The position numbers and the translations under genes are program-made. This document shows, piece after piece, positions 280 to 55,209 of a DNA stretch of 64,000 nucleotides; the first letter of the stretch is position 1; each line of letters opens with the position of its first letter. Source of the DNA: Octopus vulgaris (taxonomy: Eukaryota); the NCBI GenBank assembly GCA_951406725.2, contig OX597826.1:29946001-30010000 (forward strand), in the 5' to 3' direction. The notes beneath the pieces were generated by a model that worked only from the letters and a program-made list of their open reading frames with translations, did no database searches and was not told where the DNA came from.

Positions 280-733
280 TATGTTTGACTTTTGCTTTAT
301 GTCTGTACAAGTTGGCTCCAAGTCTCACCCAGAGACCTCAAGAGACAACAGGTTGGAAGTTCACGTTGTTGTTATGCCTAATGTGCCATATATTTGGGGT
401 TTTTTTTGGTGTTGTACTAGTGAATGTCTAATACATAAATTAAAAAAAAAAAAGTTTTAGACCTTGGGATTACATAGAGAGTATTTTGCGTAGGATATGA
501 GCAGTTCCCATGAGCAATATCTTTTGAATTTCTGCCATTTTGGGGTTTCCTGGTATCTGAGTTAGGTAGCAATCAGCCCCTTTCGCTATCATTCCCAGGG
601 CACCTATGACAACAGGTATTGTTTTAGTCTTCAGGTTCCACATTTTGCTGATTTCTATTTCAAGATCTTTATATTTGCTCAGTTTTTGGTAGGTCTTGAC
701 AGATACATTTATATCGATTGGGACAGTCATATC
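279..733 (-). mobile_element. 3' fragment of an RLE-type (Dong/R4-like) LINE in (TAA)n
   Basis: ORF 470-733 reads IDMTVPIDINVSVKTYQKLSKYKDLEIEISKMWNLKTKTIPVVIGALG...GTAHILRKIL, homologous to the RLE C-terminus at 35050-35320. Both ends abut (TAA)n. Confidence 0.9.
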
Positions 734-734
734 A

Positions 735-1202
<468 letters not shown>

Positions 1203-4991: not shown

Positions 4992-5065
<74 letters not shown>

Positions 5066-5088
5066 GAAGAAGAAGAACAACAACAACA

Positions 5089-5162
<74 letters not shown>

Positions 5163-13813: not shown

Positions 13814-14614
13814 ATGTCTCACTAATACATCCAATACAAAGATTATACACATGTATCATGTCTGCATCTGTATATTCTTCATTTTATCAATTATCTACAC
13901 ATCTACTTACCTACGTTCCTACGTACCCACCTACATACATACGTACCTACCTACCTACTTACATCATTACCTACCTACACATCAACTTCCCTATTTACTG
14001 ACCCTCGAAGGCTTACATATCTACCTACACTTATGCACAAAGTTATAGATTCCAGAAGCCGTTTTACTTCTATGCGTATATAAATATTCGTCTGTGTATA
14101 TATATTAACATGCGTGATGGTGAAAAACCCTTCGTCGATTTCGATGTGGATTGTTATGTTGGTAGATCAACAGAGCCGCCTATCAACATATCAGTTTATA
14201 TATGGCTGGCCTTAGTAAAAGATAATAGTAGTTACCAAACCAACCGTCATAAAGAGCCTTTTACTAAGAATATTCCTTAATTCTTAAACGATGGAACTGG
14301 TAACTGCTGTTACCTTTTACTGAGGATATTCTTGAATTCTTCGACAATGGAACTTGTAACTATTAATATATTTTATTAAAGACATCCTTTAATTCTTCCT
14401 CTCAGAAGATGGAGTTGTTGGCTAGTATGGAAGTCTTTGCTCAATGGCCTATGTGCCGTATAGACATCTATTTTAGAAACAGCTGTAAGGGACTTTACAC
14501 AGTGTTTCTTAATCCCTTATTTGCCTTAACTACCCTGCAAATTATGTTTGGATTATAAATTGCACGTTTTAAAGTGATACTACAAGTGTTGCTTACTCGT
14601 TCTTTTTTTCTATC

Positions 14615-16113
14615 CATTGGACAACAAAGATTTTGCTACTGGAGCAGAAACATGTGTTTTAGACTAAACCGAGGATGCTGACTCCGAATCCGCAATCAGA
14701 ATTGTTCAGGCACGACAAGATTTTGAGTTATGCGCATGCGCAAAATTTATAACTATACTTTCAGCTAGATATAGACCGCATTATAAAATTTGTTAAAATG
14801 AAAGCAAGAAAATAATACTTGTTTCTGTACTGACGGTAATGCACTCATACAAAAACTAGGACATGTGAATATGGCTAACGAATGGAGATCGTTTATAGAC
14901 TCGAGTAAGGTTAGCCTCAAAACTGTGTTGTCTCATAATGGTAATGAAACACATTTCATTCCTGTGGGTCATGTTGTCGGTATGGAAGAAACTTATGAAT
15001 CGATGGAACTTATTCTGAAAGGAGGTAATTACTCAGTTCATAAGTGGAATATTTGTGGTGGTTTAAAGGTGATTTCCCTCCTCCTTGGACAGCAGCTGGG
15101 ATATACCAAAAATATGTGCTTCTTGTATGTTTGGAACAGCCACAACGACAGCAATCATTCCACTGTAAAAGACTGACCTAAAAGAGATGAGCGCATAGTT
15201 GGTCGATGCAATGTGCAGCATATGCCACAGGAAGACCTGTAAAAGATTTTTCTTCCACCCCTTCACATCAAACTCGGCCTCATGAAAAACTTTGTAAAAG
15301 CAATGACACATGATGGTTGTGCCTTCCAGTACCTTAAAGTGAAATTTGGTGCAGAGAAAAGTGACGCAAAGCAGAAAGCAGGCATTTTCATTGGACCCGA
15401 GATTAGAGAATTGATATCTGATAGCAAATTCAGAGGTAAACTGAATCCAGTTGAGCTGACGGCATGGGATTCATTCCTTTTGGTAGTTGTACAAAACTTT
15501 CTTGGAAGTCATAGAGCGGAAAACTATGCTGAATTAATAAACAACATGCTAACAACGTACGAGAGAATGGGATGCCGAATGTCCCTTAAAATGCACTTCT
15601 TGCATTCTCAACTCGATTTTTCCTAACGAATCTTGGTGCCCTTAGTGATGAACATGGTGAGAGGTTCCACCAAGAAATATCTGAGATGGAAAAGAGGTAT
15701 CAAAGCCAGTTCAATCGACATATGATGGGTGACTACCGCCGGTTCCTACAACGGGAGACCAGCACGACGCATAAGCGCAAGAGCAAGTGTCTTAAACATT
15801 TCTGAGCTGAGCATATCAAAAATAAAGTGAATATTCCCTTCACATAAATATACTATGTACCATTATATTATAATATTATTTGCCTTGAACAATACTATAT
15901 ACAGTACTAATATTCTATAATAATAATTATTTAGCTTCAACTTAACTATTTCTGATTCTAGTATAGTATTAATATATAATTATGCGCATAACTCAAAATC
16001 CAGATGTGTTACATTAATTCTGAGTGCAGATTCGGAATCAGTATACTCTATTTAGTTTAGTACAGCACCATTTGTCTGGGTAGCAGATAATAAATCTTTT
16101 TTTCTGCCCAGTG
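14615..16113 (+). mobile_element. Chapaev3-like (CMC superfamily) DNA transposon with a transposase pseudogene
   Basis: EWRSFIDSSKVSLKTVLSHNGN...WNICGGLKVISLLLGQQLGYTK...LPPLHIKLGLMKNFVKA...MSLKMHFLHS...SDEHGERFHQ, with stops and frameshifts (~14820-15805). Imperfect TIRs cattgga...ccagtg include ctccgaatccgcaatcagaatt / aattctgagtgcagattcggaa. The family assignment is from recall of these motifs. Confidence 0.8.
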
Positions 16114-18019: not shown

Positions 18020-18057
<38 letters not shown>

Positions 18058-18060
<3 letters not shown>

Positions 18061-18498
18061 TTCACTTCCGGATTCTCTCACTCTGTGAAAGTTTCAAGTT
18101 CGAATCACACGTGTCTCGAGATGTGCCGAAGATTTTCTATTTTGGATATATTTGGGGTACTTAGTGTTTGCTTTTTCCATGGGTATGAGTAAGTATTTCA
18201 CTTATATCTCACGTATTTATCGCTGAAGAGGGGAAAATTCTTATGAATTAACCCCGAAATTGGGACCAATACGGTAATAACGGATTTTTTAGAAATTTCT
18301 ATCGGTTTGTTTCGAGACGCATAAATTATAATGGTTATTGACAATTTTTGGGGTTTTTTTCGGCATATTTGGCATTAGAATTTTTCTTTTGCCCTTATTT
18401 TGTAAATTATTCATAAATTTAACCTTTAAATGTATTTTTTGATATGCTGGCCATTGATAAAATTTTTTTCCCGAAAAAAATTTTATCCTACATTAGTT
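18058..18498 (+). mobile_element. ~440 bp (TA)n-flanked element containing a hammerhead ribozyme
   Basis: (TA)n on both sides; hammerhead at 18212-18282. Confidence 0.7.
18212..18282 (+). ncRNA. Type I hammerhead ribozyme with an intact core
   Basis: Stem I tatt(t)atcg/cggtaata; CTGAAGA at 18223-18229; stem II GGGG-aa-AATTC-ttat-GAATT-aa-CCCC; GAAA at 18256-18259; stem III TTGG-ga-CCAA. Predicted cleavage at AUA, after 18271. Confidence 0.85.
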
Positions 18499-18555
18499 AT
18501 ATATATATATATATATATACATTAATCAAAATAAAAACATGATGCCAAGGATTCA

Positions 18556-18633
18556 GCGGTACATATGTTTCGGGCCTTTATTAGACGGATTTATAACAAT
18601 GCATAATGTGTGTCTATGGCCTTCTTCAGCCGC
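18556..18633 (-). ncRNA. Hammerhead ribozyme, mirror copy in the left arm
   Basis: Exact reverse complement of 18900-18977. Confidence 0.8.
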
Positions 18634-18899
18634 GCACAATTACTACCCCAAGGACACGTATTACATCAAAAATTCTACGTTGGGGATGCAAATCCTCTCA
18701 TTCGCGTACGACATAATGCGGCACCAGCACAAAAATGGAGCGTCCATCTCGTCCTTCTCTCAATGTAGAATGAGAGAAGGACGAGATGGACGCTCCATTT
18801 TTGTGCTGGTGCCGCATTATGTCGTACGCGAATGAGAGGATTTGCATCCCCAACGTAGAATTTTTGATGTAATACGTGTCCTTGGGGTAGTAATTGTGC

Positions 18900-18977
18900 G
18901 CGGCTGAAGAAGGCCATAGACACACATTATGCATTGTTATAAATCCGTCTAATAAAGGCCCGAAACATATGTACCGC
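18900..18977 (+). ncRNA. Type I hammerhead ribozyme with a palindromic stem III
   Basis: GCGG-CTGAAGA-aGGCC...tagac/gtcta...GGCCc-GAAA-CATATG-TA-CCGC. Predicted cleavage at GUA, after 18973. Confidence 0.8.
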
Positions 18978-19079
18978 TGAATCCTTGGCATCATGTTTTT
19001 ATTTTGATTAATTTACTCCACCACCTACACCACCAAACGGTATATACAGGTGCTTACAATTATCAAGTACTCACCCTGA

Positions 19080-19190
<111 letters not shown>

Positions 19191-30269: not shown

Positions 30270-31480
30270 TTCTCATTCTTTCAAACTCATCATCGAATCC
30301 CCAACATAACTACTACCATCCGCCAACACATCACCAACGACCCTTCCTTTTACTCCTATCTTGACTATTTTCCCTTCCATTCCTCCACGCGGCAAATCTG
30401 CCACTCATCTTTTATCACGATTCTTCAGGGATTTCGCCGCATTTGCAACAGATAATCCCACTTCCAGAATTCATTTCAAATGTGTCACTTTTTGGTCCCA
30501 ACCCGCAGCGGTTACAATTCTGTCAATCACAGACAACACTTAACCCAAACTACCATTCCTGTCCTTCAAAAGAGACAAAAACTAGCACGACAATCTGGTC
30601 GGGTGTACCCCTGTCCCTTGTAATATGCGGACCTTTTCTTATGCCTACACCTTAATCTTTTGAATCCTGCATATTTCACACAATTATAACTCCACGTTGA
30701 ACGTATCCATCCAATCAGTTGGTAATTTATACAACCTTACGCTCTGCATATCATACAGTACCACGCAGTCTTTACAATATATTTTATATAAGGGCAATAT
30801 ACCGCTGCCATGAAGCTCGCTTCTGGGATTTTCTTCTTGATATTCGAAATATCACCACTGGCTTCTTCAGACACTTAGCTTGATGCTTCAATTCACTTAT
30901 CCGCCTCCTGTGATCACCTCTCCGAATGTAGTACTCTCAAACAGAAAAGTTTTGTTTAAACCCACCAACTCAACGATCCGAGGATTGTTTTAAACATAGA
31001 AAGCACAGCTTCCTATTGTGTGAACAGCATCTTCAATATTTTATTCTGTACATCTATTCATGGCTGTCCCTGTACGTTTATTTGCGGTTTTACCTGTACA
31101 GTAGTCTATGCGTGAGTGTGTACGATGGTATGTGCATATATGTGTCCCTATACATGTATTCAATGATGTGTGCGTATGTCCGAGTTAGTCTTTCAGCATG
31201 TTGACTTAACCACTGTCCACCCCACATAATATTCCTTTTAGTTAGATTATTCTGACCAACATCCAGTTACCGCTTCTTTTCCATTTACTGTTTCGCATTC
31301 TCCTTCATGTTATGAACATCTTATACTACCCCCTTTACTCTCCACATCACCTATCTCTCCTTCACTGCAACCCCTCTTCATTCTTAGAGCTTGGCCAACA
31401 ATATCTTAGTCTTACTCAACTTTCTGATGAAGAGTAACAGTCCGAAACGTTAAGACTTTCAATGCCTTATAATAATCGAA
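30270..31480 (+). mobile_element. Degenerate Penelope-like retroelement (RT C-terminus, GIY-YIG remnant, 3' hammerhead)
   Basis: SYLDYFPFH...FRRICN (30355-30450) resembles the PLE thumb motif YLxxxSxHP...LRRICS. tatataagggcaa (~30785) reads as a frameshifted YIGQ. Minimal hammerhead at 31408-31458. Confidence 0.6.
31408..31458 (+). ncRNA. Minimal Penelope-type hammerhead remnant
   Basis: CTGATGA-A-gagt-aaca-gtcc-GAAA-CG-TT-aagac; stem II is decayed. Confidence 0.45.
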
Positions 31481-32800: not shown

Positions 32801-32895
32801 TGGAAATAAAATAAAATATGGAAGGAAATATGAGTAGAAATAAAATAAAATATGGAAATAAAATAAAATATGGAAATGAAATAAAATATGGAAGG

Positions 32896-34408
32896 AAAAC
32901 AACATAAATATAGACTTGGATATAGCAATGAACCCTAACAAACTAGCAAATATACGGAGATATATTCTCAACGCAAAAAAAATATCAGAAATAGAAATAG
33001 AACATCTAAAAGAAAAAATACATCAGGAAAATGTAGATAGAAGCCAGACGACAATGCCCAATAATATAAACACTGAAACAGTAAAACACGAAGACAAATG
33101 TAACACTCCCAACACGACAAACAAACATACAAATAAGAAAGAAAACGACACAAATCTAAAACCTGGAAACAATGAAGGGGAGCCTAATGAATATGATAAT
33201 ATAAAAAGTAGAATAATCAAAGAACTGAAAACCACAGAGCTCAAAATGGACCAAAGACCATACCTCCCAAAAATCAAAATAGACGAAACAACAACACCAA
33301 TTATAAACAGCATTAACCTAGCCGTCACGGAACTAATAGCCACTGAAACAAAAAGCGATATCACTGAGCTAAATAACTTAGTATACGCAGCAGCCACTGC
33401 AGCCACAAAAGAAGTTGGATGATAGCATCCCTCACACATGGATCCTCGAAACACTAGCCATTAACAAAGTAGCACCAACAATTATAAAATTCATTGGGCA
33501 CTCTTTGAATAAATGGCAAACAGTGCTACAGCTCCAAACAAAAGAGGGACTCATGAAAACCAAAGCCATCCCCATTAGAAGAGGAATATTCCAGGGAGAC
33601 ACGCTCTCTCCACTCCTTTTCTGCTTGGCACTGTCACCTCTATCTGATATGCTAAATAGAACTGGATGCAGATATAAATGTTACGACAAAACGATCAGCC
33701 ATCTTTTATATATGGATGACCTAAAACTATACGCTGCAAATGACAAACACCTGGAAACACTATTAAAGACAGTTCATGGATTTACCAAAGAAATAGATAT
33801 GAAATTTGGATTAGAAAAATGCGCCAAAGTAACCATGAAAAGAGGAAAACTAGTTAAGAGTAGCAACATCACACTAGATAAAACCAATGAAATAAAAGAA
33901 TTAGACCAAAGCCAAACTTACAAATACTTAGGAATCCATGAACTAGATAAGACACAACACACACAAATGAAAGAGAAAATAAAAAAAGAATATTATAGAC
34001 GAGTTAGATCAATACTAAAAACAGAGCTCAATGCTAAAAACAAGATAATAGGTATTAACACTTTAGCTGTCCCAGTTATAAGTTACAGCTACAATATCCT
34101 TAACTGGACACGAAATGAACTGACCAAAATAGATAGGAAAACAAGAAAAATAATGACAGGGTCTAGAATGCATCACCCAAAATATGACATAGAATGACTA
34201 TATATACAACGTATAGAAGGTGGTAGAGGCCTTATACAGCTGGAAAACTACTATAAAATAACCACCATAGGACTGCAAAAATATCTACTTCAGAAGGAAG
34301 GAAAACTGATACAAATAGCGGCAAAACACGAGCAAAACAAGAAAATGTTCTCAGTATTTAAGGAAGCTGACAAATACAAACAAGAAATCATACCACCTAA
34401 CAAATATA

Positions 34409-34439
<31 letters not shown>

Positions 34440-35420
34440 AGAAGAAGAAGAAGAAGAAGAAGAAGAAGAAGAAGAAGAAGAAGAAGAAGAAGACAACAAC
34501 AAAAGCTATAAAACAAATGAAATCTAAACTAAAACTAGAACAGCAAAGAACCATGATAAAACGATGGCAAGAAAAACCCCTCCACGGTAAATACTGGACT
34601 AAACTAAATGCAAAAGAAATAGACAAAGAAAAATCCCAGCAATGGTTGAGAAGCTCAGGACTCAAAGCAGAGACAGAGGGATTTTTAATTGCAGCACAAG
34701 ACCAAAGCCTCTCCACCAGAAATTACCAAAAACATGTAATAACAAGTAACTGCAGAATATGTGGAGATGGACAAGAAACAATAAATCATATTATCTCTGG
34801 CTGCCCAGTCCTGGCTAAGAAGGAATATATTCACAGACATGACAGAGTTGGAACCTACATACACTGGAAGCTATGCCAACATTATGGAATAACAACAGAA
34901 AAAAGATGGTATAGGCACACACCAGAAAAGGTCACAGAAAACGAGAAAGCAACCATACTCTGGGATATGCCGATACACACAGATAGAGAAATTAAGGCCA
35001 ACAGACCAGATATAGTTGTCAGAGATCATGAAGGAAAAAAATGCTTTCTAATTGATGTATCAATACCGGCAGATGACAACGTGTCTCTAAAAGAAATGGA
35101 GAAACTTTCAAAATACAAAGACCTGGAAATGGAGGTAACCAGAATGTGGAATCTAAAAACAGAAACAATTCCTATCATAGTAGGTGCATTAGGCATGATA
35201 AAAAAATATTCAGACAAATACATAACAAAAACACCAGGACTTACAAACACATATAACATACAGAAAATTGCACTACTAGGCACTGCACACATCCTACGCA
35301 GAACACTTTCCATACAATAACCATCAGAGTATCACAGCAAATCACAGCACATACCCAAGGCACACAGAGCTGCGCTCAGTAGTGAAGTGAAAGCACGATA
35401 TAAAAAATAAAACTACTGAA
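32896..35420 (+). mobile_element. Dong/R4-clade non-LTR retrotransposon (RT + CCHC + restriction-like endonuclease), defective
   Basis: RT motifs DSIPHTWIL, GIFQGDTLSPLLF, HLLYMDDLKLYA, FGLEKC and YKYLG; CRICGDGQETINHIISGC; RHD; RPDIV...IDVSIP...KY. The 3' end runs into (TAA)n. Defects: internal deletion at ~33415, a stop at 34195 and a (GAA)n expansion with frameshift at 34410-34492. Confidence 0.93.
33418..35320 (+). pseudogene. Reverse transcriptase/RLE ORF, disrupted
   Basis: ORFs 33415-34197 and 34517-35320 are colinear parts of one R4/Dong-type protein. Confidence 0.9.
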
Positions 35421-54604: not shown

Positions 54605-55209
54605 CAGTAACAATGAAGGGTGAAATTAATTAATTTGGAACAATTATCAATTACACCAAGTAGTCTTCGGCATGTAAAAGCCTCATTCGAGGAAAATTTA
54701 AGTAATACTAAGCAATTAAGGGTTTAGCAACGAATTGCCTTACCACACACCGAATTTAGAAATAGCAGTCAAAGAGATTATAGCTATTTCTTCTACTAAA
54801 AGGGAGATCACAGTAAAGGCACAGCATTTGAAAGGCAAACACAAACAGGTAAAAGAGAATGAATTAACGGCAATCTATCATACAGTTTTAAGTCACCTAC
54901 GGACGTACGTTTCGAGATCAAGTCTTAGGAAAGCATAAGAATTAGATAACTCTACTTTACCCAGTTATCTAATTCTTATGCTTTCCTAAGACTTGATCTC
55001 GAAACGTACGTCCGTAGGTGACTTAAAACTGTATGATAGATTGCCGTTAATTCATTCTCTTTTACCTGTTTGTGTTTGCCTTTCAAATGCTGTGCCTTTA
55101 CTGTGATCTCCCTTTTAGTAGAAGAAATAGCTATAATCTCTTTGACTGCTATTTCTAAATTCGGTGTGTGGTAAGGCAATTCGTTGCTAAACCCTTAATT
55201 GCTTAGTAT
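54602..55209 (-). mobile_element. (TA)n-embedded fold-back element
   Basis: Arms 54705-54951 and 54963-55209 (247 bp, no mismatch seen), an 11-nt spacer and a ~100-nt tail. Contains a hammerhead 3' half, GAAA-CGTACG-TC (55001-55012 and mirror). Confidence 0.92.

Follow-up and report, generated by a model that had tools for sequence, protein, structure and literature searches.

A conserved type I hammerhead in a 468-bp octopus repeat with the features of a non-LTR retrozyme, likely mobilised in trans by Penelope-like enzymes and predicted to cut mainly as a pair

At a probability of about 0.6, we favour the reading that the motif, a conserved hammerhead of type I, belongs to a 468-bp non-LTR retrozyme present here as a solo copy, that this repeat was likely mobilised in trans by a Penelope-like element (PLE), and that its cutting is predicted to proceed mainly through a double hammerhead. 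The copy lies in a 64-kb stretch of Octopus vulgaris DNA, referred to here as the window, and its features are collected in Table 1. The ribozyme itself is unremarkable; small animal repeats with a canonical type I hammerhead form a class that has already been described. The value of the repeat is that of a test case with countable footprints, namely A+B priming, read-through of the cut site and rare mutations common to both repeats of one insertion. Intact Neptune-like frames in the same genome make the helper, the template form and the question of monomer versus dimer cleavage directly testable.

Architecture and conservation of the hammerhead motif

The initial annotation had described the core nucleotides as canonical and stem II as closed by a G-C pair and extended past a symmetric AA/AA loop, and both descriptions were borne out when the sequence was read again. 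On the + strand, CUGANGA, GAAA (18256-18259) and NUH, here the AUA triplet at 18269-18271, follow each other in order together with stems I-III. Stem I consists of six contiguous pairs (18217-18222 with 18272-18277, one of them G-U), a 2x2 loop and three further pairs and is open, which gives the motif its type I topology. In stem II, GGGG (18230-18233) pairs with CCCC (18252-18255) and the distal bases 18236-18240 pair with 18245-18249, with pairing probabilities of 0.71-1.0 (ViennaRNA). Stem III pairs AUUG (18259-18262) with CAAU (18267-18270) around GGAC, and cleavage is predicted between 18271 and 18272. Stem III had also been said to differ from the minimal forms of animal Penelope pLTRs, and at four pairs it is indeed longer (compare PMC4209133).

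Table 1. Positions of the repeat copy, its hammerhead and its end sites in the window
Feature	Position	Strand	Basis or remark
Solo copy of the 468-bp non-coding repeat	18055..18501	+	Corresponds to positions 7-468 of the natural unit in locus L003; one hammerhead
5' (TA)n tract, target remnant	18025..18057	.	Sequence
3' (TA)n tract, target remnant	18498..18519	.	Unrelated second Penelope-like insertion directly behind
Type I hammerhead ribozyme motif	18212..18282	+	Read from sequence; strict pattern scan
Stem I, 5' strand	18212..18222	+	Pairs with 18272-18282
Core strand C3-A9, CUGAAGA	18223..18229	+	N7 is the sole variable core position in the family
Stem II: four G-C pairs, AA/AA internal loop, 5-bp distal stem, UUAU loop	18230..18255	+	Folding
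GAAA core strand, palindromic stem III (AUUGG-GA-CCAAU) and AUA triplet	18256..18271	+	Sequence, folding
Site B, putative reverse-transcription start	18400..18409	+	100 of 270 segments end here; unused by the window copy
"Tail" of about 90 nt between both end sites	18410..18501	+	End mapping
Site A, main 3' end, used by the window copy	18501	+	110 of 270 segments

This was the only strict match on either strand of the 64-kb window. A generic descriptor (stem I at least 6, stem II at least 4, stem III at least 4) returned 0 matches when the whole window was dinucleotide-shuffled 300 times, and the exact core-and-stem pattern matched the genome 344 times against 3 times for a control pattern, with 4 of the first 100 matches listed being unrelated. 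A chance motif is ruled out by these two results. At gathering scores Rfam left the motif unmatched, and none of the 13 matches at E<=10 came from hammerhead families; the long stem II may account for this miss.

Conservation was assessed in 272 distinct segments from 202 loci, a non-random sample chosen by best score or exact patterns. At the 11 invariant core positions, 30 of 2343 cells departed from the majority, compared with 3619 of 79817 in the rest of the unit (Fisher p=3e-18); core-containing queries supplied some of the loci and thereby bias this comparison toward conservation, a bias that explains neither the changes at the free core position N7 (45 of 205) nor those in the stems. 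In 70 sequences hand-picked from 169 distinct ones, 11 of the 22 stem pairs were changed on both sides, amounting to 36 cells compared with 6.9 in shuffles (0 of 500 reaching the observed value), although the sequences are related and the cells are therefore not independent events. Changes on both sides affected five of the nine pairs of stem I, and the compensatory exchanges included U-A to A-U and G-C to A-U in stem I, G-C to A-U in stem II and U-A to C-G in stem III. The hammerhead fold is also retained in a sister subfamily (77-80% identical), which combines several of the exchanged pairs. Conservation of the core together with compensatory pairs in all three stems shows that the structure is real and maintained, and on this pattern of substitutions the motif is judged to be a true type I hammerhead of canonical form that purifying selection maintains.

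The 468-bp repeat, its copy ends and its candidate helpers

The hammerhead belongs to a protein-free retrozyme repeat rather than to the pLTR of a protein-coding element. This repeat is short, low in GC and non-coding, carries a type I hammerhead and occurs in many dispersed copies, and it thus has the sequence-level features of animal non-LTR retrozymes as these are described in PMC7229834 and 10.64898/2026.07.22.740005. Canonical hammerheads are the norm in protein-free retrozymes according to PMC7229834. The genome that holds the window is 2.8 Gb in size and rich in microsatellites. A DNA search gave 2898 candidates for the unit, of which the 40 scored were 96-100% identical, and at least 340 copies in the genome bear the motif. 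The unit of the sister subfamily is about 498 bp long, and a search with a 19-mer, one mismatch being allowed, gave about 1570 matches, with 0 for the control. No reading frame of at least 150 aa overlaps the unit in the window, and no frame is joined directly upstream in the segments that cross or start at a unit junction. There is likewise no true LTR structure, the unit adjoining itself without a reading frame. In contigs of four runs guessed to be RNA, a format in which ends and circles are invisible, the unit was covered at a summed depth far below that of a neighbouring repeat.

Units join head to tail at 52 exact junctions, only one of which has a neighbour that is one unit off. No long satellite arrays occurred among the sampled segments, the longest spans being 835 (unit of 468) and 921 (unit of 498). 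Two complete hammerheads are present in 13 of the 272 segments, which makes these "active" by the rule of the 2026 preprint (10.64898/2026.07.22.740005). By the same rule the window copy, which also has a 17-nt deletion between 18158 and 18159, is a monomer. As it carries one motif, it would release no unit-length RNA and would be a dead end, with slow cutting on its own being possible.

Apart from the ribozyme, CACTTCCGG at 18063-18071 is retained in the displayed copies of the sister subfamily while the adjacent bases diverge; we take this stretch to be ETS-like, and it may act as a promoter or as a binding site for a protein. The B-box-like GTTCGAATC suggested transcription by polymerase III, a reading that was dropped, the unit being full of T runs.

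The ends of the copies carry the marks of Penelope-like insertion, namely 5' truncation, partial tandems, inverted copies, a tail at one end only and (TA)n targets. Only 60 of the 270 complete segments had a 3' end elsewhere than at site A or B, and the 3' flank was (TA)-rich at 91 of 113 A ends and 70 of 101 B ends. The 5' ends are scattered across the unit, giving 5'-truncated copies, partial tandems and inverted pairs. Among 80 head-to-head pairs, 46 had both ends at the main sites, and these consisted of 45 A+B pairs, a single A+A pair and no B+B pair (p=7e-13). Penelope elements are described as leaving partial tandems and inverted 5' copies and as carrying a one-sided tail (PMC8557442), and measurements on the anole element PAc showed two internal start sites with priming on both strands (PMC11167929). 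The one-sided tail, the A and B ends and the inverted pairs seen here match these descriptions and hence constitute a Penelope-like insertion footprint. A palindromic hairpin (18457-18486) lies just before site A, where the direct copy is in many cases joined to a very short inverted 5' stub; 47 of the 270 5' ends fall at unit positions 420-459, near this hairpin.

Two PLE families of the same genome were considered as helpers. The Neptune-like family, obtained from a GIY-YIG genome search in which 150 of 6136 candidates were scored, is young (copies 93-98% alike) and encodes a 466-aa ORF1 and a 765-aa reverse transcriptase (RT) with a C-terminal GIY-YIG domain and a CX4CXXC linker; an element with intact reading frames exists, and in locus L114 the ORF2 is naturally intact. 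The Hydra-like family, reached via the repeat that adjoins the window copy, has the RW, DKT, CxCX5C, CxxC and CxH motifs described in PMC8557442, and no complete frame was found for it across the eight stretches examined. Both families end in (TA)n at two sites. Local alignments of the unit with the ends of either family scored 20-27, within the range of shuffles. By its footprint the helper is likely a Penelope-like enzyme, the two families found here having no matching ends.

These observations bear on whether the repeat could be the detached pLTR of an unsampled autonomous PLE, with its tandems produced by homing or local duplication. The homology of Xenopus retrozymes to pLTRs (10.64898/2026.07.22.740005) and the small scored fraction of the GIY-YIG candidates speak for such an origin. 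We nevertheless consider it very improbable, for in every listed segment the start of the unit is preceded by its own end, by an inverted piece or by target DNA, and no RT and GIY-YIG frame between pLTRs was found for the unit in the loci examined. PLE fragments occur in just 2 of 201 family loci with the Neptune-like query and 4 of 201 with the Hydra-like queries, and the two Neptune-like matches examined were set off by an inverted piece or lay on the other strand. In addition, the units within one insertion differ by 4.1%, mostly through unique changes, which argues against recent duplication. Three apparent links to a parent element were rejected. In L112 a copy immediately follows a Neptune-like element and in L242 another sits within an old endonuclease frame, and each is read as an insertion; a 57-nt match of 75% beside a Hydra-like end (L357) is separated from that end by a TA tract and is interpreted as an old copy in its own right.

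The PLE families and the window showed several further features. In the Neptune-like locus L111, a hammerhead-like motif at 5060-5105 has a minimal palindromic stem III and U3/A8 in place of C3/G8, presumably a swapped tertiary pair, and standard CUGANGA descriptors would miss this form. Upstream of a TATA-like site in the same 3' region (L111 4250-4720) there are repeated GATTGG and TGACGTC boxes, which we take to be CCAAT- and CRE-like. Five full-length Neptune-like copies start at L111 4658-4717, which suggests a transcription start of the family. In the window, the stretch behind the element (18520-19082) is a perfect 245-bp inverted repeat that represents a twin-primed insertion of a Hydra-like PLE 3' end, with a short left arm and a right arm carrying a tail of about 70 nt. 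Inside it there is a second hammerhead-like motif at 18904 (+), mirrored at 18629 (-), which has a 4-bp stem I, a palindromic stem III and a GUA triplet and whose stem II is closed by an A-C mismatch. The Hydra-like family gave 1568 exact 27-mer matches and has a 4.7-kb unit with RT and endonuclease. A minimal hammerhead-like motif with an imperfect stem II (CTGATGA ... GAAA CGTT) at 31424-31460 is probably an old Penelope pLTR remnant, and a second perfect inverted repeat at 54705-55209, which has arms of 247 nt and a spacer of 11 nt and ends at a TA tract, is possibly another twin-primed insertion. The window also holds a broken non-LTR retrotransposon at 32880-35320 with an RT (RVT_1, E=3e-16) and a zf-RVT-like stretch, a related 3' fragment at 470-934 (-), and at 14600-15810 a degraded frame that resembles a DNA transposase by eye.

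Template form and mode of cleavage

Insertions in which the same part of the unit is present twice preserve a record of the RNA from which they were copied. In 49 segments with overlapping repeats, the minor allele was common to both units at 89 sites and discordant at 23; random pairs gave 14,407 shared-minor and 112,802 discordant sites. Rare alleles were found in both units of one insertion 22 times compared with 1.6 expected, and five of them were absent from all other sampled loci. A linear cleaved monomer as the template was ruled out, since the cut site shows no accumulation of 5' ends (unit positions 236-246 hold 4 of 270 against 6.3 expected). The shared alleles and the lack of a stop at the cut site together indicate one unit-length template that was read more than once, and such a template would most simply, although not decisively, be a circle.

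The same insertions could also stem from a miniature linear PLE in which two pLTRs, the first about 365 nt long, flank a body of about 100 nt; its transcription would begin near position 100 and its uncut linear RNA would be copied, with no circle as template and with a late or protein-assisted role for the hammerhead. The upstream 5' ends halt near 103-120, with 2 of 20 segments passing position 100 of the upstream unit compared with 54% under a constant stop rate (p=5e-5), and such a boundary would be expected from a linear uncut RNA of 1.8 units or from an enzyme limited in the length it can copy. Every span is shorter than two units, a point against a circle, since free rolling would yield longer arrays, and the five full-length Neptune-like copies have a similar hard 5' boundary. 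A GTAAGT upstream of the hammerhead, presumably a donor-like site as in PLE pLTRs, fits as well. For PAc, uncleaved linear RNA is reported to be the main substrate, and hammerhead mutants leave insertion unaffected (PMC11167929). However, separately inherited pLTRs should carry differences between the 5' and 3' copies, of which none recurs in more than 4 of the 49 insertions, and the excess of rare alleles common to both units runs against separate inheritance too. Two segments (L090 and L153) cross two unit junctions, and the stop rate climbs with length within the last unit, so that a length limit could mimic a fixed boundary. On balance we regard the linear miniature element as unlikely, and the circle is ranked first, though not decisively, from the alleles and ends of the copies.

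A related question is whether the motif cuts alone. The initial annotation had called stem III stable and the motif the best candidate in the window for monomeric self-cleavage. The cis pairing between ATTG and CAAT can form as it had proposed, but the stability did not hold up: the stem III hairpin alone is predicted at +0.5 kcal/mol, with a pairing probability of at most 0.03 in six contexts. The active hammerhead fold is 2.1-6.0 kcal/mol less favourable than the minimum-energy fold, which is a different structure. For the transcript 18190-18310 the gap is 5.2 kcal/mol, so that this RNA is predicted to misfold, whereas for the motif with a minimal leader (18208-18286) it is only 2.1 kcal/mol. 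The stem III strand is a near-perfect palindrome whose self-duplex, at -12.3 kcal/mol, is strong in trans. Among its common variants the palindrome is kept while the centre contracts to one base, which leaves the inner G and C unable to pair in cis. In all 11 natural two-motif loci the double hammerhead was 10.0-11.4 kcal/mol better than two monomers, lying within 1 kcal/mol of the minimum in six loci and 3.4-13.4 kcal/mol above it in the other five. These values are from equilibrium ViennaRNA folding without tertiary contacts or co-transcriptional order, with the trans pairing spanning 470 nt. The motif is thus predicted to cut best as a pair and not alone. Palindromic stem III and dimer action are known for animal hammerheads (PMC4209133, PMC7229834).

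An efficient monomeric self-cleaver that works through its cis stem III, with the double fold being irrelevant in cells, would have a precedent in the coral and mussel retrozymes, which cut as single motifs (PMC7229834). Four Watson-Crick pairs are possible in cis, whereas animal hammerheads usually have one or two (PMC4209133). The lengths of stem I (6 bp) and stem II (4 bp) are canonical, their loops are in register, and a cis fold formed co-transcriptionally would precede synthesis of the second motif. In a one-unit circle, for which 60-68% of the bases are predicted to be paired, the single hammerhead costs only 1.0-4.4 kcal/mol (six loci) and is therefore not firmly blocked. Set against the weak hairpin, the variants with a one-base centre and the lead of the double fold, efficient cutting by the single motif nonetheless appears improbable, and monomeric cleavage by the motif at 18212-18282 is possible without being the best-supported mode by these folds.

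The reading of a PLE-mobilised retrozyme that cuts as a pair suggests the following course. The loci with two motifs would be transcribed, and the palindromic stem III strands of the transcript are predicted to pair with each other, so that both sites are cut and an RNA of one unit is freed. As in the coral, mussel and axolotl retrozymes, this RNA would then be ligated into a circle. To judge from the copy ends, a Penelope-like RT-endonuclease would nick both strands of a (TA)n target, with one cDNA primed at site A and another at site B, and each cDNA would pass the ligated cut site and continue for up to about 1.8 turns. The products, which are seen directly, are 5'-truncated, partial-tandem and inverted copies. 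More tentatively, we suggest that the double hammerhead gates a single 468-nt circle, and that a borrowed dimer of a PLE enzyme copies it from two sites, one per nicked strand, without any homology to a pLTR. If this were true, the copy ends would record a missing step of the retrozyme life cycle, and the repeat would provide direct genomic evidence and an in vitro substrate for the mobilisation of circular RNA in trans by a telomerase-related RT. Copying of retrozyme circles by Penelope-like enzymes has been proposed, with no demonstration found in the available text of PMC7229834 and 10.64898/2026.07.22.740005.

Relation to known systems

A search of the literature for this repeat family and for cephalopod hammerheads, with supplements, Repbase and Dfam lying outside it, found no published description of the family. 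The closest systems are the animal non-LTR retrozymes (Cervera and de la Pena 2020, PMC7229834; Li, Clavereau and Pollet 2026, 10.64898/2026.07.22.740005), which are likewise protein-free low-GC repeats with one canonical type I hammerhead per unit. They also share the occurrence of monomers and tandems, the coexistence with PLEs and a highly paired circle, the last being a prediction for the octopus repeat. The units of 468 and 498 bp are longer than the 170-400 nt given in PMC7229834 and fall within the 51-972 bp of 10.64898/2026.07.22.740005. The octopus repeat differs in that its arrays reach at most about 1.9 units in our sample and in that its stem III has four pairs and is palindromic. 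The (TA)n targets, two start sites and A+B pairs were not found described for animal retrozymes in the available text of these two sources (PMC7229834; 10.64898/2026.07.22.740005), and local pLTR homology, reported for 24 of 57 Xenopus families (10.64898/2026.07.22.740005), was not found here.

The pLTRs of the endonuclease-bearing Neptune, Hydra and Poseidon PLEs (PMC4209133, PMC8557442, PMC11167929) resemble the repeat in having a type I hammerhead upstream of two internal RT starts, and in their 5' truncation, partial tandems, inverted 5' copies, one-end tail and (TA)n targets. In contrast to them, the repeat has no reading frame and its hammerhead is canonical and not minimal. Its tail is also longer, at about 90 nt compared with 30-40 nt in PLE pLTRs and about 70 nt in the Hydra-like family of the same genome. 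Lastly, the newt satellite and the axolotl retrozymes (PMC7229834) share a palindromic stem III that lets two tandem motifs cut when paired. Their stem III has one or two pairs and their dependence on the dimer has been measured, whereas the octopus motif has four pairs and its dependence on the dimer is predicted.
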